Source of the DNA: Promethearchaeia archaeon
Lineage (GTDB): Archaea; Asgardarchaeota; Lokiarchaeia; Sigyniarchaeales; SOKP01
DNA length: 24,440 bases
Reading direction: 5' to 3'
NCBI GenBank assembly: GCA_046483985.1
Contig: JAWOCD010000078.1
Location: 1 to 24,440 of the forward strand
This document shows, piece after piece, positions 2,193 to 13,896 of this stretch (positions are counted from its first letter, which is position 1; every line of letters starts with the position of its first letter). The notes beneath the pieces are model-generated. The model had not been told where the DNA came from, searched no databases, and was given only the letters and a program-made list of their open reading frames with translations. The translations under genes were made by a program, and so were the position numbers.

Positions 2193-3509
2193 ATGAGTTC
2201 TAAAAATGTTGGAACAAAGCTCGACTTTTTTAAAAAAAATAAAACATTATCCGTTGTTTCAATCGGATTTCTTGTATGGATAAGCATTCTAATTATTGTA
2301 GCTTTAACCACATCCCGGGAAGTACTTTTCTTAGATTACGGAGTAGGGTTCCAAGACGGTCAACCTTCGAATCTTTCTGATAAATATAGTTCGGTGATCC
2401 CTCTCCTACGTTATCTCATTGAACCAATTATAGGGATAACATTGGTTTTTGATAGTATGGGTTATGATATTATTATGGGGTTTATCTATTCGATGATTAT
2501 TCTCAGAATAGGAGGATTTACCCTCAAAAAACTGGGATATTTACAATCGGAAAAAGCAAAACTTCTCTGGTATCCGATAAAGGATTGGATTCGATTTTCT
2601 TTTATCGTTATTTCAATTGCAATAATTTCTGGTCTATTATTGATTTTGACAATGTTTTTAACAATTGGGTTTTATTGGGTTAATCTCAATTTTATGATGG
2701 TCATTCATTTGTGTATCATTATTTCCGTCTCCTTAATGGTTATAAAAATGCTTATTCTTGTCATCCGATATATTCATCCACATTTGGCGCTAAACTACGG
2801 TGAGAAAAAGCGTTATAATTTGCCGGAAACGAGCTCCACCAAAACGAAGATATTTCGCGCTTTTAGAAGGGAATTTGTCTATGTGGTGGGAATAGCTTTC
2901 ATACTTGTGGGATCAACCATGCTTTTGCAAATGATCCGCTTTCCGATCCATAGAATAGAGGCAGATTTAGATGACGGTGAAGTTCTTCTCGACTTCCACT
3001 CACATACGTGTTTATCTGATGGGTGGCTTACTCCCGAAGAGAGAGTTGATTGGTATATCGCTCACGGTATAGATGGTGCTGCCATTTCGGACCACGATAA
3101 TTTAAGAGGGGCGATAAGAGCTAAAGAATATGTGGAAGGGAATGATCTCGATTTTAAGGTGTATTTAGCACAAGAATGGTCCGGTACCGATCTTCACTTG
3201 TTGATTTATGGGTTGGAGGAAGTGATTCTCCCAGAAAGAAGAGATGGGATACCTCAGTTTACGAATGAATTTGATGAGACACCCAAAATAATGAATGCGT
3301 CAGAAACAATTACATATGTAAATCAAACAGAAGGAGCTTATACTATAGTAGCACATTATAACGCCTATAATGACACAGAGGCAGAACATATAGGGGAACT
3401 CGGCTCTCCTTACACACATATTTCCGAGGTCCGAGAATTAGAGAGTATTGTATCGCGAATGATCTCATTTGTGTTGGGAGCACAGACGTCCACTCGAACG
3501 AGGGATTAA
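2193..3509 (+). CDS. Polytopic membrane protein with PHP (polymerase/histidinol phosphatase) domain; N-terminal part, frameshifted near 3420
   Basis: About 6 hydrophobic segments, then PHP motifs DFHSHTCLSDG, AISDHD, AQEW, HLLIYG, IVAHY. The final metal-binding motif is missing from this frame. Confidence 0.8.
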   Translation: MSSKNVGTKLDFFKKNKTLSVVSIGFLVWISILIIVALTTSREVLFLDYGVGFQDGQPSNLSDKYSSVIPLLRYLIEPIIGITLVFDSMGYDIIMGFIYSMIILRIGGFTLKKLGYLQSEKAKLLWYPIKDWIRFSFIVISIAIISGLLLILTMFLTIGFYWVNLNFMMVIHLCIIISVSLMVIKMLILVIRYIHPHLALNYGEKKRYNLPETSSTKTKIFRAFRREFVYVVGIAFILVGSTMLLQMIRFPIHRIEADLDDGEVLLDFHSHTCLSDGWLTPEERVDWYIAHGIDGAAISDHDNLRGAIRAKEYVEGNDLDFKVYLAQEWSGTDLHLLIYGLEEVILPERRDGIPQFTNEFDETPKIMNASETITYVNQTEGAYTIVAHYNAYNDTEAEHIGELGSPYTHISEVRELESIVSRMISFVLGAQTSTRTRD

Positions 3510-3838
3510 ATGCGTTCGTTAATGTAAAATTGAATAACACCGATAATTATGATATTGATGATGTATTTGACGCGTTACGGAAGAACGCCCATGAAGTTGT
3601 GGCAATAGAAGGAATCGTGGTTCTCTCGCATATTTCACATCACAGTAATTTTCCTGAAATATTCGGTGATCTGGATATGGATTATATCGAAGATTTTGGA
3701 GGATACTGGTCCAATTTGGATAAATTCCAAGTGCTTTCATGGATTTTATGGTCAACAGCCCTTTTTGTTTTATTCGTTTTCGTCTATATGCGGGCAAAGA
3801 AATCCGATCTCGAAAAACTGAGAGAAACAATCCTTTAA
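3419..3838 (+). pseudogene. C-terminal part of the same PHP protein in another frame
   Basis: The frame of ORF 3530..3838 is open upstream and reads YFRGPRIREYCIANDLICVGSTDVHSNEGLNAFV... (PHP terminal xDxH motif), followed by a C-terminal TM helix. Confidence 0.75.
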
Positions 3839-4004: not shown

Positions 4005-4817
4005 TTAAATAATCTGACCGCAATAATTTCCGCCAAAGGGCCGTTTGCTAATTGGTTTTATTACCTTAAATGGCTTCTGATCAATGAGATCCCGTGAAAT
4101 GTCATATCGATTACAAAATTCCTTGATTAGCGGGCCGATTTGCTCTTTTTCACTTTCGCAAATCTCATAGACTTTTGCCCCTACTCCTAATTTAGCGGAT
4201 AAATCTTCCTCTGTGCGGAGTATTATTTTTCCTCTGTGAATGCCCGTTCCTAGTTCACCTTCTGTAACGGGATGCGGATTTTCTATCACACTGCCATCTT
4301 CCAAAAATTTTAAACCTAAGACTAGAATGATCCCTCCTGCCATATATTCTCCCAAAAATCCTTTTGAGGTCCCTCCGATAACAATCGAGGGATGTTTATG
4401 TCGATATTCTTTAATGTGGATGCCCACTCGATATCCCACGTCTTCTTTGACCATGATTTTTCCGCCCCGGGCAGAAAGCCCAATTACATCACCTGCATCA
4501 CCGTCAATAATAAGTCTACCGTCGTTCATAGTATTTCCCGCTTGGTCTTCGCAATTCCCGTTCACAATTATTTCTGGTCCATCCATGAAGATGCCTAAGT
4601 CATTTCCTGGAAGACCGTTGATTATCAATTGGATATCACCCTGCAAAGAGGCACCGATAAATCTCTGTCCGCATACATTATTCAAAATAATTCTCGTATA
4701 TTGTTCCTCTATAGATCGGTAAACTCGTTCATTTAATTCTTTATAATTAAACGGTTCTCCATTTGGAGCCGCATTGATATATATTTCTTTTCTTTCTTTT
4801 ATTTTTTGTATTTGCAT
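4005..4817 (-). CDS. gltB3: Glutamate synthase GXGXG (GltB domain 3 / FwdC-like) subunit
   Basis: NVCGQRFIG, GLPGNDLGIFMDG, GNCEDQAGNTMNDG, GDAGDVIG, DVGYRVGIHIKEY, FLGEYMAGG, GTGIHRG; operon context. Confidence 0.9.
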   Translation of the reverse strand: MQIQKIKERKEIYINAAPNGEPFNYKELNERVYRSIEEQYTRIILNNVCGQRFIGASLQGDIQLIINGLPGNDLGIFMDGPEIIVNGNCEDQAGNTMNDGRLIIDGDAGDVIGLSARGGKIMVKEDVGYRVGIHIKEYRHKHPSIVIGGTSKGFLGEYMAGGIILVLGLKFLEDGSVIENPHPVTEGELGTGIHRGKIILRTEEDLSAKLGVGAKVYEICESEKEQIGPLIKEFCNRYDISRDLIDQKPFKVIKPISKRPFGGNYCGQII

Positions 4818-4883
4818 ACTTTATTCATTTCTCTTTCCTGTGAATTTGATTTTTTAATATTTAGTTTGTTATTCTCCTTTCTT

Positions 4884-6404
4884 TCATGCACCAGCATGTT
4901 TTACTCCTAAAATTTCTGCAATTCGAGGGTTCGGCCCAATATACCTGAGTCTATCTCGATTGGATCTTAAAGATTCTACGGAATCGATTCCCATCGCTCC
5001 TAGAACTTCTTTTAGTTCTTCATTCCAACTACGGAATAAGTTAATAATGCGGTTTCGGGCAACATCGATATCCAATCTTTTCACTAAATACTCTTGTTGG
5101 GTTGCAATTCCCCAAGAACAGAGTCCTCTAAAGCATTGTTGACATACTCTGCATCCCATCGCAATTAATACCGGCATACCGCACATTCCCACATCGGCAC
5201 CCAAGGCAATTGCCTTTATTAAATCTGCCGAATATCTGATAGAACCTCCCGCAACTAAGGTGACTTCGTCCCTTAAGTTCTCTTGCCGCAACCGTTCATC
5301 CACGGAGGCAATTGCTAATTCAATTGGTATCCCTGCATGATCGCGAATAATGCGTGGTGCCGCTCCAGTACTTCCTCGAAATCCATCAATCGTAAGGAAA
5401 TCTGCTCCGCCTCGCACAATTCCGACTGCGATAGGTGCCACATTATGGACTGCGGCGACTTTTACCCCAATCGGTACTTTATAACGGGTTGCTTCCTTGA
5501 GCGCAGCTATTAATTGGGCTAAATCCTCTATTGAATAAATGTCGTGGTGCGGATACGGGCTCAATGCATCACTTCCTTTCGGTATCATACGTGTTTGCGA
5601 AATCAAATTGTTTACCTTTTCGCCTGGAAGGTGTCCCCCATGTCCAGGTTTTGCCCCTTGTCCTATCTTAATTTCCAGCCCAGCCGCATTCTTCAAATAA
5701 TTGATGTCAACCCCAAATCGACCAGATGCAATTTCTGCGATGATGTTCGAACCATATTCATAAAAATCTTCATGAAGGCCGCCTTCTCCCGAACCTGCTA
5801 AGATGTTTAACTCTTTCGCCGCTTGATTAATTGCCATTACCGCATTATAGCTAATGGAGCCTAAACTCATATGGCCAACTATAATAGGCATATCAATCTC
5901 TAAATTAGGCATAAGCTCAGTTTTGAGGGAAATCTGATTTGGATCATCCTTATTAACACAAAAATTGATTTTTCTCGGTTTTCTCCCAAAAAATATACGT
6001 GTTTCGATGGTTTCTCGCAAAGGATCTATGCTAGGGTTTGTCACTTGACATGCATCGAGAAGTAAATCATCAAATATATTGCGAATTGACCGATCATTTC
6101 CCGTGGCACTTAACAAAACTCCTCCCTTACCGGATTGAGCCCAAATGATATTTCGAATCCGTCTGTCATAGTTTCCGTGAGGAGGTAGATAAGATTTATT
6201 TTCTACTATTTGAATTGCGCCTCCAGGACACATCACCGCACAACGCTGACATGCCACGCATTTGAACTTGTCTGGAACAATTCGTTCCCCGTTAAAACTT
6301 AGGGCTCTATAGGAGCAATGATTTGTGCATCGTTTGCATTTTTTACACTTATCCCTATCAATTTTTACTTCGAAATGGGCCGGGACTTCATGATTTATTG
6401 ACAT
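4884..6404 (-). CDS. gltB2: Archaeal-type glutamate synthase FMN subunit with N-terminal 2x[4Fe-4S] ferredoxin domain
   Basis: CKKCKRCTNHC and CVACQRCAVMCP; QVTNPSIDP; MSLGSIS; SGEGG; ASGRFGV; EIKIGQGAKPGHGGHLPGEKV; SPYPHHDIYSIEDLAQLI; GCRVCQQCFRGLCSWGIATQ. Confidence 0.95.
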   Translation of the reverse strand: MSINHEVPAHFEVKIDRDKCKKCKRCTNHCSYRALSFNGERIVPDKFKCVACQRCAVMCPGGAIQIVENKSYLPPHGNYDRRIRNIIWAQSGKGGVLLSATGNDRSIRNIFDDLLLDACQVTNPSIDPLRETIETRIFFGRKPRKINFCVNKDDPNQISLKTELMPNLEIDMPIIVGHMSLGSISYNAVMAINQAAKELNILAGSGEGGLHEDFYEYGSNIIAEIASGRFGVDINYLKNAAGLEIKIGQGAKPGHGGHLPGEKVNNLISQTRMIPKGSDALSPYPHHDIYSIEDLAQLIAALKEATRYKVPIGVKVAAVHNVAPIAVGIVRGGADFLTIDGFRGSTGAAPRIIRDHAGIPIELAIASVDERLRQENLRDEVTLVAGGSIRYSADLIKAIALGADVGMCGMPVLIAMGCRVCQQCFRGLCSWGIATQQEYLVKRLDIDVARNRIINLFRSWNEELKEVLGAMGIDSVESLRSNRDRLRYIGPNPRIAEILGVKHAGA

Positions 6405-6407
6405 AGG

Positions 6408-7616
6408 CTAGCTGACCTCCATGGGTGCTTCAATTTTTAATTCAATTTTCTCAAACGGTGTTTCTGTTCCATCGCGGATTAACCCTCTTCCTACCTGTGC
6501 AATTACTACGGTTCCGCTTTTAGGATGCCAGATTTCTTTAAAATCAAATGAGCCATCTGGCTTATCCAATTGCAATCGTCGAAACGATGCTTCTTCGCTG
6601 CTCAAAAAGACGGTATTTTCGTCTTCAGATAATGCCGCCACGAGGGGACGCAATTTTTTCCTATCCGATAATCCAATTAATGATGGTACTGGATTTGCCG
6701 TGCCCACGATGATCGAAAAAGGTCCGTTTAACATTGCCGAACGATAGGTGGCCCGGAGATTTTTGAGTGTAATCCGATATTCTTCTTTTAATTCTTCGAT
6801 TTCTTTGAAGAGTGGAGGACTTAAGACCAAGCTCGTAATTGGGAGCGGAATTCTATGTTTTCTGCCCAATAAGTCAAATAAATAGGCAATTACTTCGGTA
6901 TCCGTATGTAAAGTGCATTTATATCTGAAAGATTCCAAATACCGCATATTCGTTCCATAAGATGTGATTTCTCCATTATGGACAACGGAAGTATTAAGTA
7001 GGTTAAAAGGATGCGCTCCACCCCACCAACCGGGAGTGTTTGTAGGGAATCGACTATGGGCGAGCCACATATATGCCTTATATTCCTCGATTTTGTAGAT
7101 CTCGGCAATCTCGTGCGACCACCCGTTCCCCTTAAAAACGCCCATATTTTTTCCGGATGACATGATGAAAGCCCCTTCAAATTTCTCGTTAATTTCCATT
7201 ACTAAATTCATAATTTCCTCATCATGGGACAATCCTAATACATTTTTTGGCTCATAAAAGACTCGCCAGGTGATGGGTGGATTTTCAATCTCTTTTGGAG
7301 GGCTAGTGGGAATTGGTTCCGAATGAATAATGTACCCTTTCCGTTCCAGAAATTCTATGACATTCTTTTTGCATTTATCATGGTCAAAAAGAAAGTGTAA
7401 TGCGTAATATTCTTCAAAATTGGGATATATTCCATAGCCGGCAAATCCTGCTCCCAGCCCGTTTTCACGTTCGCTGAGAATACATAACATATCAATAATT
7501 TTTTTGCCATTATCTCTGGTTCCGTCTATATTTAAATAGCCTGAGATTCCGCATCCATCAAAAACTTTCTGTTTCTGAAACTCTGGGGGGAGCGCAGTAT
7601 AATTTTTCCAATTCAT
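6408..7616 (-). CDS. gltB1: Class II (Ntn) glutamine amidotransferase subunit of split glutamate synthase
   Basis: Short leader then DG|CGISG; ERENGLGAGFAGYG; SSGKNMGVFKG; AHSRFPTNT; AHPF; VHNGEI; TDTE; LNGPF; DRKKLRP; SSEE. Confidence 0.92.
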   Translation of the reverse strand: MNWKNYTALPPEFQKQKVFDGCGISGYLNIDGTRDNGKKIIDMLCILSERENGLGAGFAGYGIYPNFEEYYALHFLFDHDKCKKNVIEFLERKGYIIHSEPIPTSPPKEIENPPITWRVFYEPKNVLGLSHDEEIMNLVMEINEKFEGAFIMSSGKNMGVFKGNGWSHEIAEIYKIEEYKAYMWLAHSRFPTNTPGWWGGAHPFNLLNTSVVHNGEITSYGTNMRYLESFRYKCTLHTDTEVIAYLFDLLGRKHRIPLPITSLVLSPPLFKEIEELKEEYRITLKNLRATYRSAMLNGPFSIIVGTANPVPSLIGLSDRKKLRPLVAALSEDENTVFLSSEEASFRRLQLDKPDGSFDFKEIWHPKSGTVVIAQVGRGLIRDGTETPFEKIELKIEAPMEVS

Positions 7617-7617
7617 T

Positions 7618-8955
7618 TTAATCAGCTTTTTGTTGTATTTTTTCTTTTTTCTTATCTATTTTCCCTAATAAGGATTTTAAATCATTAATTTCGGGTTCTT
7701 CGGCTTCCAATCCGACTCTCTTCCGTGCTGTCCGGGAAAAGTGTGCAACCATTCCAGTATTCTTAAAGGAATCGTATTCTCTCTTAAAGCCTTGAGCAAC
7801 ATATCCCTTTTCCATGGCTAGATTTCTTAACGTGGTAAAGATATCCACTAATCCCACTCGTGAAGGGCAAAGTTCATAACACACATAACAATCCAAACAT
7901 AACCAGATGGAAGGATTTGAGATGACATCCTTGATTTTTCCGTCAAGCAACCTTCCGGTCAACTCTTTTGGATTGAAATTTAGATGGGAAACCTTACAAA
8001 CGGGGCAATCATCATTACATGCCCCGCATGAATAACATTCTTTTAAAAAGGACACATCAAAATATTTCTCAATTTTTCTATTTTTCGCTTGAATAATCTC
8101 TATCTTTTCATAAATCCTATCTACCGGAGTACGGTGGTATTTTCTAATGATATCATTAATATCGATTCCCACAGCAATACATAATAATTCCGAATAATAG
8201 AAGACGGGTATATCATACTCATAATCCAACCGTTTCAAATCCCGTTGGAGGTGATCAAATTGCATAAAACACTGGGGGCATCCCACCACGATGCAATCAG
8301 CCCGGCCCTCTTTAATACTTTCCAACTTTGAGTGGATCATTTCAAGGCTGGAATCTGGGTTATCGGCTCTGGTTAGGCTACCTCCGCAACAATCCATCTT
8401 TCTATCATATTCAACACTTTTTGCCCCCAAATCAGCGATGAGCTCATCAAAAATGTGAGGTTCCATGGGATCATCCATTTGAATTTTATTACTCGGACGT
8501 AAAAAGTGACATCCATAATGAACCGCCACTCTCAGCCCGTTTAATGGATATAGTATACTCTCTTTAATGGTGTCTTTATCTATTTTATGAAAGAATTCTA
8601 TTAAATGCATCACATCATACTCCCCTGAGACTTGCAAGTTAATGTTTTCAAGATATTTATTCATATTATCTCGAAAATGTCCGTCAACTTTTATTTCACT
8701 CCGTATTGCTTTGAGGCTTTCAAAACATCCGTTACAAGGTGTAAGGATATCTTTTTGTTTTTTTTCAGCTAACGCAAGATTTCGAGCCGCCGTGACAGAA
8801 TAACTCAAATTATCGGAATTTTTTATCCCGTTGGGCTCGGGGCAGCATGAAAACTGATTTGATTCCGCAAAGGGGATCTGGAAATAATTTAATACCTTTC
8901 TAATCGAAACTTCAATAAACGGGAGTCGATAGCTTATCATACAACCTGGGAACAA
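7618..8955 (-). CDS. HdrB-HdrC fusion (two CCG domains plus C-terminal 2x[4Fe-4S]); true start may be ATT at 8973
   Basis: FPGC...CCPEP...ARNLALAE...TPCNGCF; HYGCH...CCGG...GCPQCFMQFD (HdrB); CYSCGACNDDCP and IWLCLDCYVCYELCP...LRNLA (HdrC). Confidence 0.9.
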   Translation of the reverse strand: MFPGCMISYRLPFIEVSIRKVLNYFQIPFAESNQFSCCPEPNGIKNSDNLSYSVTAARNLALAEKKQKDILTPCNGCFESLKAIRSEIKVDGHFRDNMNKYLENINLQVSGEYDVMHLIEFFHKIDKDTIKESILYPLNGLRVAVHYGCHFLRPSNKIQMDDPMEPHIFDELIADLGAKSVEYDRKMDCCGGSLTRADNPDSSLEMIHSKLESIKEGRADCIVVGCPQCFMQFDHLQRDLKRLDYEYDIPVFYYSELLCIAVGIDINDIIRKYHRTPVDRIYEKIEIIQAKNRKIEKYFDVSFLKECYSCGACNDDCPVCKVSHLNFNPKELTGRLLDGKIKDVISNPSIWLCLDCYVCYELCPSRVGLVDIFTTLRNLAMEKGYVAQGFKREYDSFKNTGMVAHFSRTARKRVGLEAEEPEINDLKSLLGKIDKKKEKIQQKAD

Positions 8956-8982
8956 AATGATATCATTATGAATTTTAGGTTT

Positions 8983-8987
8983 CCTCC
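8983..8987 (-). promoter_or_regulatory. Shine-Dalgarno GGAGG for the hdrBC gene
   Basis: GGAGG lies 9 nt upstream of an in-frame ATT at 8973. Confidence 0.45.
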
Positions 8988-9222
8988 ATAAAATTTAATC
9001 TAAATTTTTCATATATTTTCTTTATTTAGTTATATAATCTCATCAAATATATATTTAACTATATTTACAAAATTAAAAAATCATTTATTCGTATACTTTA
9101 TTCTACTTCCTCAAAAAGCGTCCCAATTTTATTAATAATTATGATTTTAAAAAATAAGTTGATCTAGTTATACCAACTAAGAGGATATATATTAAGTATA
9201 TTCAATATATATTAACAAAGTT

Positions 9223-9270
9223 AGAAGTTAGAAAATCCTGTTTCCGTTCCAATTAAAGAATTAAAAGAAA
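9223..9270 (+). repeat. 48-bp segment homologous to 18721-18768 (encodes KLENPVSVPIKELKE)
   Basis: 43/48 identity by manual alignment. Confidence 0.85.
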
Positions 9271-9282
9271 GGCTGGAAAAAA

Positions 9283-9465
9283 GGATTAAAACGGGAAAAA
9301 CGTAAGGGGGAAACTTTTCCAGAGTTAATAAACCGCTTGCTGAAGCAAAAAAAGGACAAAGAAACTAAACTTGAAAGCGTTGCTGGTAGTTTAAAAGATG
9401 ATGATGAATGGGATGATATTCTGAAAAAATTATATGAGGATAGAGAAAAACCAGCCAGAATCTGA
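9283..9465 (+). pseudogene. vapB: VapB-type (DUF217-like) antitoxin lacking its N-terminus
   Basis: LKREKRKGETFPELINRLL...LESVAGSLKDDDEWDDILKKLYEDREKPARI*, directly upstream of a PIN gene; no start codon. Confidence 0.7.
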
Positions 9466-9475
9466 GGATATGATT

Positions 9476-9884
9476 ATGGCAATATTAGATACAGATTTAT
9501 TAATCTCTTACTTAAGAAAAAAAGAAAAAGCATATGAGATCGTGCAAATTCTAAAGCGAGAAAACGTGCCGTTAAATACAACCATTTTTAACTCCGCAGA
9601 ATTATATAAAGGAAGTTATAGTGCCAATAATGTTGCTAAAAGCCTCAATAAAGTCCAAACCTTATTAAGTGCACTCAATAAAATACTCGCCTTTAATGAA
9701 AAATCAGTCCAAGAATTTGCGAAGATTTCCTCAGATTTAAAGAAACGAGGGGGTCACCATTGGTATTATAGACGAGCTAATCGCGGGTATATGTATTTCA
9801 AATAACGAAGAACTTTATACTGGGAATTTTAAAAAGATTCCAGAACTCTCGGTTACAAATTGGAGAACCATAGGGGTTGTTTAA
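9476..9884 (+). pseudogene. vapC: VapC PIN-domain toxin, frameshifted in the G5 run at 9749-9753
   Basis: MAILDTDLLI...AELYKG. Removing one G gives KKRGVTIGIIDELIAGICISNNEELYTGNFKKIPEL; the usual xxH between N and F is also missing. Confidence 0.8.
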
Positions 9885-12747: not shown

Positions 12748-13896
12748 ATGAAAAGTCGGGAACGAGTAAGACGAGCCTTTCATTTTAATCAACCGGATAA
12801 AGTACCGATGTCGTGTATCTCTTTAAAAACGGATTTTTTCCCTGTCTCTCCGACTGAACCCCAATCCTGGCAGCCAACAGATCTTCCGCCACACGTCAGA
12901 GGAGGGGTAAACACTATTTCGAAGTGGTATTATCGATGGTTTATCTATAATTGGGACAAGGAAATAAGAAAGAAATTAGGTTATCCAAGAGATTGGTGGA
13001 AATATCCCCATGAGAGTGTGGATGAATGGGGTGTGATTTGGAAGAATTCCGGAACGGCAAGTGATGATATTACAAAAGGACATCCTTTCCATGGTCCTCT
13101 TCAAGATTCATGGGATGCGTTAAAGGAATATAAACCACCCAATGCATCTGATCCGGAAAGATATCGATTAGTTAAATCCCGAATTATGAAATTTATTGGT
13201 AGAAACAAATATACAATCGGATCGATGGGAGTTAATGGCTTCTTTAATTTATGTTCACAACTAAGGGGTTTTAATAACTTGCTAGTGGATGTGGCTCGAA
13301 ATGCGGAGAAAGTAAATAGTTTAATCGAAAAAGTTCTTCCTTTTTATATAACACAAATTAAAAAACTCAAGGAATATTTCCCAAAATTGGATTCAATTAT
13401 GATTCCCGATGATATGGGCACCCAGAGGAGTCCCTTCATTAGTCCTCGTATTTTTAGAAAAATTTTCAAAGAACCTTATAAAAAAATCATTTCTTTAACC
13501 CATGATCTTGACATGGATTTTATCCTCCATTCTTGCGGTCAGATATATGAATTAATGCCAGACATTATTGAAGCAGGGGTAGATGTGTTTGAATTTGACA
13601 GCCCGCACATGGTAGGAATAGAAAATATAAAAAAGTTTGCGGATAAACGACAAGTTGCTTTTTGGCTTTCAAGTAATATTCAATCTACCTATGTAAATGG
13701 CACTCCAGCAGACGTTGAGCAAGAAATTAAAAACTATATCAAAAATGTGGGAAATAATCAAGGAGGCTTAGCAATTTATGAATACACCAGTAATAATACT
13801 TTAGGCACTCCTAAAGAGAATATTAAAGCGCAAAGACAAGCAACCGAGAAATGGGGTCAATATGATGAGAATGGTATGATAGAATGGCTAAGTTAA
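12748..13896 (+). CDS. Uroporphyrinogen decarboxylase/MtaA-CmuA superfamily protein
   Basis: KSRERVRRAFHFNQPDKVP; VDEWGVIW; LRGFNNLLVD; DDMGTQRSPFISP; LHSCG; IIEAGVD; GTPADV; TPKENI. Confidence 0.88.
   Translation: MKSRERVRRAFHFNQPDKVPMSCISLKTDFFPVSPTEPQSWQPTDLPPHVRGGVNTISKWYYRWFIYNWDKEIRKKLGYPRDWWKYPHESVDEWGVIWKNSGTASDDITKGHPFHGPLQDSWDALKEYKPPNASDPERYRLVKSRIMKFIGRNKYTIGSMGVNGFFNLCSQLRGFNNLLVDVARNAEKVNSLIEKVLPFYITQIKKLKEYFPKLDSIMIPDDMGTQRSPFISPRIFRKIFKEPYKKIISLTHDLDMDFILHSCGQIYELMPDIIEAGVDVFEFDSPHMVGIENIKKFADKRQVAFWLSSNIQSTYVNGTPADVEQEIKNYIKNVGNNQGGLAIYEYTSNNTLGTPKENIKAQRQATEKWGQYDENGMIEWLS

Follow-up and report, generated by a model that had tools for sequence, protein, structure and literature searches.

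A 24,440-nucleotide stretch of Lokiarchaeal DNA, called the window throughout, carries a compact operon in which the gene for a fused protein with HdrB- and HdrC-type parts stands first, ahead of the three genes of a split glutamate synthase. The window is the entire contig C25 of a 4.06 Mb genome that is 97% complete, and the locus is the only gltB locus of that genome. The four open reading frames (ORFs) lie in the same orientation on the minus strand, with gaps of 1, 3, and 66 nucleotides between the fusion, gltB1, gltB2, and gltB3. An earlier interpretation made from the letters alone (the sequence-only reading) had described this arrangement and had claimed that both CCG domains and both ferredoxin motifs are kept in the fusion; ORF coordinates, Pfam matches, and a check of the cluster ligands bear out both statements. 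In reading direction, the features are as follows.

7618..8973, minus strand: HdrB-HdrC fusion; two CCG domains, then a 2x[4Fe-4S] HdrC domain; proposed dithiol-oxidising electron-input subunit
7618-8955, minus strand: the same fusion read from its first standard start codon, TTG 8955; 445 amino acids
6408..7616, minus strand: gltB1; 402 amino acids; class II (N-terminal nucleophile, Ntn) glutamine amidotransferase, Pfam GATase_2
4884..6404, minus strand: gltB2; 506 amino acids; N-terminal 2x[4Fe-4S] ferredoxin domain and flavin mononucleotide (FMN)/2-oxoglutarate synthase barrel (Glu_synthase)
4005..4817, minus strand: gltB3; 270 amino acids; GXGXG beta-helix subunit

In the fusion, none of the ten CCG cysteines has been lost, and His150 and both CxxCxxCxxxC motifs (eight cubane cysteines) are likewise intact. 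Numbered from TTG 8955, the noncubane [4Fe-4S] ligands are C5, C37, C38, C74, and C77 together with C149, H150, C189, C190, C226, and C229. The structure is predicted with a pLDDT (predicted local distance difference test) of 93 and a pTM (predicted template-modeling score) of 0.86, and the model matches HdrB of 8RVU/5ODC with a template-modeling (TM) score of 0.91. Judged by their motifs, the three core genes are an archaeal split glutamate synthase. In GltB1, the nucleophile Cys22 sits behind a 21-residue leader whose processing would expose it, and the glutamine-binding motifs are intact; HxRxPTN and HNGE occur here and in 223 of 225 family members. GltB2 and GltB3 match PF01645 (422 bits) and PF01493 (96 bits) in Pfam profile searches. 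GltB2 aligns to 1EA0/1LLW/7MFM across the GAKPG and HHDIYSIED loops, and its barrel contains a four-cysteine cluster motif (C418, C421, C424, and C429) that, like K252, R272, and E293, is invariant in a 66-row alignment.

Described glutamate synthases take electrons from NAD(P)H or ferredoxin, and F420 has been proposed as a further donor (PMC8097209, PMC9012536). As the sequence-only reading had stated, there is no gltD, NAD(P)H flavoprotein, FrhB-like subunit, or hdrA in the window, by an ORF survey and Pfam search of the whole contig. The system shares with the GltB–GltD and ferredoxin-dependent enzymes (1EA0, 6S6X, 1LLW; PMC8097209) the Ntn glutaminase, the FMN/2-oxoglutarate barrel, the GXGXG domain, and the catalytic motifs, and it is likewise paired with glutamine synthetase. 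It differs in being divided among three polypeptides, in having no separate central domain, in carrying a 2x[4Fe-4S] domain on GltB2 and a four-cysteine motif at the FMN cluster, and in lacking GltD, with a CCG/noncubane protein filling the input slot instead. The same three core genes are found in split archaeal-type synthases (loci L105, L427, and L428) that have an FrhB-like partner, the putative F420 form cited in PMC9012536, or a partner pair consisting of a 4Fe-4S protein and a flavin adenine dinucleotide (FAD)/NAD oxidoreductase. The synthases with the latter pair, here called the NAD(P)H module, are 50–58% identical in GltB2 to the fusion-linked form, but the fusion and that module were never seen together.

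The fusion is not a peculiarity of the window. A survey set of 207 distinct full-length fusions was assembled, 194 of them with at least 600 nucleotides of downstream sequence and 123 with at least 4.5 kb (long loci); the sampling is biased towards Bacillota and anaerobic methanotrophic archaea (ANME). The hosts include Lokiarchaeia, other Asgard families, ANME-2/Methanosarcinales (including Ca. Methanoperedens), Bacillota, Actinomycetota, Armatimonadota, and Nitrospinota, and a version split into separate B-then-C genes occurs at one deltaproteobacterial and one Nitrospirota locus. The setting in a probable non-methanogen that the sequence-only reading had named is thus too narrow, as the system is common in ANME-2/Methanosarcinales. 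The linkage itself is conserved across two domains and several gene orders: glt genes lie in the locus for 194/194 fusions with sufficient downstream sequence, and gltB1, gltB2, and gltB3 are all present in 123/123 long loci. In addition, glnA is found in 58 of the long loci, and amtB/glnK or ANTAR genes accompany several fusions. The fusion may be the first gene of the operon (the window), lie in the middle (L181, L511), or come last (L122, L509, L510). Linkage that persists while gene order varies favors functional coupling over inherited synteny. Pairwise distances among fusions also track those among GltB2 proteins (Mantel rho 0.83, 0/999 permutations, 64 loci), a correlation that is due in part to shared ancestry alone. 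A profile test was uninformative in the class of L130, where only 1 of 48 genomes has the fusion.

Many gltB1-3 operons without the fusion carry the NAD(P)H module, some methanogen ones have an FrhB-like gene, and some have no partner of any kind. The NAD(P)H module was found in 0/123 long fusion loci, and a search for FrhB next to glt genes in the same loci gave a single match (L400), several kb upstream and on the opposite strand. One genome (G077) has two glt operons, one with the fusion and the other with the NAD(P)H module. In the GltB2 tree, whose root is untested, one branch among the fusion-linked lineages unites the NAD(P)H-module forms with most of the partner-less ones, with support of 98 in the Shimodaira–Hasegawa-like approximate likelihood ratio test (SH-aLRT). 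Taken together, the linkage, the exclusion of the alternative module, and the distances that track GltB2 argue that the fusion is very probably a dedicated electron-input subunit of the synthase, which is the part of the sequence-only reading that stands. A complex prediction for the fusion with GltB2, run with alignments, scored 0.11 against a mark of 0.32 and was used neither for nor against this conclusion.

Two observations weigh against an input role. Three Lokiarchaeia genomes (G251, G217, and G115) keep gltB1-3 with no full fusion anywhere, and other gltB1-3 loci are partner-less; because the three genes occur without the fusion or any partner, GltB2 may take electrons directly from ferredoxin. 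The loss of the fusion from genomes with intact gltB1-3 would also fit a protein that is co-regulated with the synthase but does not feed it, for example one that protects the GltB1 catalytic cysteine from oxidation, acts as a redox sensor, or works in a nitrogen-controlled branch of sulfur or lipoate metabolism. Such a role is very unlikely, as the NAD(P)H input module is strictly excluded from fusion loci, the fusion is retained through gene-order changes and cross-domain transfers, and its distances correlate with those of GltB2. Decay of the locus can be seen in several places: a C-terminal remnant of the fusion lies beside intact gltB1-3 in G115 (L237), a further case is L238 (G251), and at L388 (G331) a fragmented operon lies near mobile-element genes in a single-contig Methanosarcinales genome in which H-proteins are still present.

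Alternatively, the fusion might serve as a wire or sink to which a flavoprotein encoded elsewhere, an HdrA or a GltD-like protein, is connected. HdrC would then receive electrons from a bifurcating HdrA, or GltB2 would be fed directly by ferredoxin, and the synthase would run with no thiol drive. The window's genome does have many hdrA copies, as well as a single GltD-like gene, located in an operon of NuoEFG type next to a gene for glutamate dehydrogenase. In a related Asgard locus, hdrA-hdrC-hdrB-frhB and gltB3-gltB2 are joined, an HdrA-linked HdrB (L321) nests among the fusions in the HdrB tree, and the partner-less gltB1-3 operons are compatible with this arrangement as well. However, hdrA is absent from 114 of the 123 long fusion loci, and where it is present it is accompanied by its own hdrB and hdrC. 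The ten invariant noncubane ligands would be needless in a pure wire, and the lpdA and lipoyl-domain genes found inside some of the operons (see below) would be left unexplained. We regard this explanation as improbable. Loci of the second Asgard type (L109-L113), with the order hdrA-(hdrC-hdrB)-frhB-like-gltB3-gltB2, are without a glutaminase subunit.

The sequence-only reading had proposed that a thiol pair feeds the fusion, with coenzyme M (CoM) and coenzyme B (CoB) among the candidates. In 5ODR, the CoM sulfonate is held by the backbone NH groups of Gly46 and Gly198, CoB is bound by Arg14, Arg201, and Arg240, and the wall of the linker tunnel includes Phe233 (PMC13261682). The ten noncubane cysteines and the histidine are conserved in 204–206 of the 207 fusions. 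Dithiol chemistry at the fusion is likely. The CoM loops PAPG and GAGGG, which contain Gly46 and Gly198, are present in 9/9 canonical HdrB proteins of Methanosarcinales (ANME) loci, whereas neither loop is found in any of the 207 fusions; Phe233 follows the same pattern (9/9 versus 3/207). The window fusion has Asn42, Ser193, and Gln228 at the Gly46, Gly198, and Phe233 positions. Loss of the loops extends to the ANME fusions, although their hosts have CoM and CoB. Searches for comA found none in the window's genome, two bacterial hosts, and one ANME host; an alternative CoM route was not searched for. The fusion scores 261.8 bits against TIGR03288 (cut-off 345.15) and 64.5 against the TfrB model NF004898 (cut-off 385). 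Because CoM loops are kept in 0/207 fusions and no comA was found here, the thiol pair is probably not CoM/CoB, and this part of the sequence-only reading has been refined in favor of a protein-bound dihydrolipoyl group.

The phylogeny of HdrB, for which comparison proteins were drawn from best matches, points the same way. In this tree, a branch with support of 97 separates 104 of 106 fusion domains, along with a few stand-alone HdrB proteins, from canonical ANME HdrB; monophyly is not claimed and, with the root untested, neither is an order of events. The ANME fusions group near lipoyl-linked Bacillota fusions and not with ANME HdrB. These results bear on the possibility that the fusion is an input subunit fed by CoM-SH/CoB-SH in ANME, or by another low-molecular-weight or thioredoxin-type thiol, with lipoyl at most a Bacillota speciality. 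Several points favor a small thiol: the CoB-binding residue Arg14 is nearly always kept in fusion HdrB domains (204/214) and Arg201 in two thirds of them (139/214), ANME are established to free both coenzyme thiols in methane oxidation, and CoM/CoB at the revised potential of −281 mV (PMC12054007) could reduce FMN. The window fusion itself keeps the two arginines (Arg10 and Arg196), with a histidine at position 240, which is variable in methanogen HdrB too. Set against the complete loss of the CoM-sulfonate loops, even in ANME whose canonical HdrB keep them, the failure to find comA, and the placement of the ANME fusions, a small-thiol donor is unlikely.

The genes that surround the fusion in Bacillota suggest a different donor. 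In the class of L181, all 13 fusion-bearing genomes share the run glnA-gltB3-lpdA-(lipB-lipA)-77-amino-acid lipoyl domain-fusion-gltB1-gltB2, so that lpdA and a free lipoyl domain directly precede the fusion in 13/13 cases. Related orders are found in L122, L506, and L507; L244 and L508 have lpdA with no carrier detected, and L509-L511 have neither. The Bacillota LpdA scores above the TIGR01350 cut-off, and the lipoyl lysine of the carrier is kept. ANME-2c locus L381 is a co-oriented run of glnA, the fusion, gltB1-2-3, lplA, hdrC, hdrB, hdrA, and gcvH, with amtB two genes beyond, and L382 is similar. Other ANME have lipS2-lipS1-gcvH-gcvH-lplA clusters along with a CoA-disulfide-reductase-like flavoprotein (L392, L395, L399, L320); in L320, gcvH, the flavoprotein, pgk, hdrC, and hdrB lie together. 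Across 201 Methanosarcinales-order genomes, an H-protein was found in 62 of 64 with the fusion compared with 26 of 137 without it. Since related genomes do not count as independent cases and many of the bins are incomplete, these numbers are taken as a pattern, and the Fisher p-value of the table is disregarded. GcvP was found in only 9 of the 201. A lipoyl group is probably the donor in Bacillota and ANME-2c.

The window's genome has the parts of a similar relay, distributed over other contigs. LipS1 and LipS2, both above their cut-offs, flank an LplA-like ligase on contig C29; LpdA is above its cut-off on contig C60; and two H-protein domains with the lysine kept are encoded on contigs C17 and C74. 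No GcvP, GcvT, or E2-type lipoyl domain (PF00364) was found in this 97%-complete genome, leaving a complete lipoyl relay without a textbook client. Thirteen of 41 genomes of the order likewise have an H-protein with GcvP not found. The H-protein domain on C17 (35419-35838; L183) belongs to a divergent paralogue, also seen in L234-L236, in conserved synteny with an NAD-kinase-like gene assigned by motif. The one on C74 (63606-64490; L182) is part of a 294-amino-acid protein that joins what by eye is a DGC-like domain to a GcvH domain with its lysine, among small Fe-S and arsenic-resistance-like genes.

A number of findings tell against a lipoyl donor. A lipoyl gene lies within the fetched DNA for only 26 of 207 fusions and is not found in the window, so that about 180 fusions are without a nearby lipoyl gene, a point that also favors a small thiol. 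Canonical CoM/CoB-type hdrCBA adjoins nine Methanosarcinales loci, which again suits a small thiol, and the co-occurrence with H-protein in Methanosarcinales may rest on few clades. The retained CoB-binding arginines count on this side too. Within the Lokiarchaeia order, H-protein and LpdA occur in all 41 genomes searched, fusion or no fusion, and therefore do not profile with the fusion here. In G007, G018, G021, and G037, lpdA lies beside ordinary hdrCB(A) clusters; these loci (L228, L229, L232, L233), mostly from fusion-less Lokiarchaeia, have lpdA 1–2 kb from hdrC-hdrB or flanking large hdr/mvh clusters. As the lipoyl genes occur regardless of the fusion and adjoin ordinary hdr clusters, the relay may serve Lokiarchaeal Hdr proteins generally, which suggests lipoylated H-protein as a general Hdr partner in this group. 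In the window's genome the relay is compatible with the glt operon and not specific to it, and for this Lokiarchaeon the case for a lipoyl donor is evenly balanced.

The proposed mechanism places the split synthase in ammonia assimilation by the glutamine synthetase/glutamate synthase (GS/GOGAT) route, with the fusion as its fourth subunit and electron input. NADH would reduce LpdA (encoded here on C60; the CoA-disulfide-reductase-like flavoprotein is a candidate reductase in ANME), which would in turn reduce a lipoyl carrier; in Bacillota this would be a free lipoyl domain of the E2 type, in archaea an orphan GcvH-like protein. Oxidation of the dihydrolipoyl dithiol would take place in the HdrB part, between its two noncubane clusters, and electrons would pass singly through the HdrC clusters, the GltB2 ferredoxin clusters, and the FMN-proximal cluster to FMN. 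The flavin would then reduce the 2-iminoglutarate formed from 2-oxoglutarate and glutamine-derived ammonia. Because the proposed dithiol is a protein-bound dihydrolipoyl group, the ultimate donor may still be NADH via LpdA. Complex formation, the direction of electron flow, and the identity of the donor are inferred. We lean slightly towards this explanation as a whole, and the chances are about even that it describes a class of glutamate synthase that is widespread, has gone undescribed, and runs on protein-bound dihydrolipoyl (NADH to LpdA to carrier to noncubane Fe-S to FMN).

Energetic considerations are consistent with this scheme. Dihydrolipoamide has a potential of about −290 mV. The FMN of glutamate synthase lies at −240 mV, or −270 mV with 2-oxoglutarate (PMC8097209). 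With these potentials, the flavin step is computed to release a little free energy (−10 to −4 kJ/mol), and the reaction as a whole, with lipoyl, comes to about −45 kJ/mol; the cubane steps are likely uphill, as in NADPH-GltS. The overall value also bears on whether the complex runs mainly in the oxidative direction, oxidizing glutamate or a related amine and reducing a disulfide in amino acid catabolism. One locus would suit that role, as the order IclR-gltB2-gltB3-fusion-gltB1 in L511 is under an IclR regulator and divergent from ornithine-degradation genes, and Lokiarchaeia are generally known to ferment amino acids. However, given an intact glutaminase subunit, synthesis is the strongly downhill direction, and the linked glnA, amtB/glnK, and ANTAR genes mark nitrogen assimilation, so a mainly oxidative role has very little probability.

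Comparison with known Hdr-type systems helps to place the fusion. It shares with methanogen HdrABC (5ODC/5ODR, 7BKB, 8RVU) the HdrB fold, the ten noncubane cysteines and histidine, and the two HdrC cubanes, but it is fused in B-then-C order, falls below the TIGR03288 cut-off, has lost the CoM loops and Phe233, lacks HdrA, and is proposed to work in the thiol-oxidizing direction. Thiol:fumarate reductase TfrAB offers the same concept of CCG domains that oxidize thiols and feed a biosynthetic flavoenzyme. However, the order in the fusion is CCG-CCG-ferredoxin, while among the HdrD/TfrB proteins TfrB works with CoM/CoB and has the CCG domains behind the Fe-S domains. The sHdr-LbpA system of sulfur oxidizers (PMC10332631; bioRxiv 10.1101/2023.12.18.572138) also combines HdrB-type proteins with a lipoylated carrier and dedicated lipoylation genes, a linkage seen here in the Bacillota and ANME-2c loci; in the window's genome such genes lie on other contigs. 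In contrast to sHdr, there is no sHdrA or sulfur transferase in the window or the annotated Bacillota loci, the role would be in anabolic nitrogen metabolism, and the lipoyl group would be carried by an E2-type domain or a GcvH-like protein, accompanied by LpdA. The fusion is chemically like HdrBC and TfrB, yet it falls outside CoM/CoB HdrB, HdrD, TfrB, and sHdr.

Full-text searches, which left subscription journals largely uncovered, turned up neither the operon nor a lipoyl-fed synthesis of glutamate. Operon terms gave no description in PMC9012536, PMC12054007, PMC10332631, or PMC11237513; lipoate and GcvH go unmentioned in the ANME comparison (PMC9012536), as does glutamate in the lipoate survey (PMC10332631). 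The operon is real, conserved, and apparently unpublished, a glutamate synthase variant whose input is probably a dithiol. The input role of the fusion is well supported by genomics; a lipoyl donor is the leading but unproven mechanism and is weakest for this organism. Which thiol Hdr-like proteins use as substrate outside methanogens has long been an open question. Few lipoate systems are known, namely the 2-oxoacid dehydrogenases, glycine cleavage, defense against reactive oxygen species, and sHdr (PMC10332631). If true, dithiol feeding of the synthase would give ammonia assimilation a new class of electron input at one of its central steps, in ANME-2, in Asgard archaea, and in many anaerobic bacteria. 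A lipoyl-driven form would add one more lipoate-dependent enzyme system, account for orphan H-proteins in ANME and in Asgard archaea, and identify the thiol used by a non-methanogen HdrB family. Since the six-gene Bacillota operon unites donor enzyme, carrier, Hdr module, and acceptor, the question is testable by a single soluble NADH-coupled assay.

The start of the fusion gene is unusual. Translation probably begins at ATT 8973 rather than at TTG 8955 or ATG 8989, because relatives carry ATT/ATA or a standard start at the same register after a Shine-Dalgarno-like motif, which in the window is the following feature.

8983..8987, minus strand: Shine-Dalgarno-like GGAGG, 9 nucleotides before ATT 8973; same layout of motif and ATT in relatives

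Among 31 distinct upstream regions from close relatives, ATT or ATA stands at the start register in 19, and ATG, GTG, or TTG in the other 12, mostly right behind a Shine-Dalgarno-like motif. ATG 8989 is out of frame with the fusion and opens a four-codon ORF overlying the motif. A frameshift restoring ATG 8989 was considered and rejected, as most relatives likewise have no standard start at that register. The ATT start with its out-of-frame mini-ORF could reflect translational control or a general Lokiarchaeal habit.

A scan of the window for promoters and terminators gave matches at chance level only. In two salt-lake metatranscriptomes from one study, short contigs match parts of the fusion, gltB1, and gltB2 with full identity, and a further contig, 89% identical, spans the fusion–gltB1 junction. 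As the material consists of contigs and offers no silent control, neither transcription nor co-transcription is inferred from it. A stand-alone FMN glutamate-synthase-like protein of 530–560 amino acids occurs in 12 fusion loci and next to guaA (L121:9496-11088; C45:68883-70571 of the window's genome, G000). Near the operon, the 9205-9805 region holds a divergent PIN-like ORF (9434-9805, recognized by eye with no Pfam match) and, upstream of it, a small ORF that is likely an antitoxin. Elsewhere in the window are two URO-D/methyltransferase-like genes (602-1738 and 12748-13896), an apparent broken FG-GAP-repeat fragment (1735-2130), and a membrane PHP-domain gene (2193-3838) that is possibly split in two.

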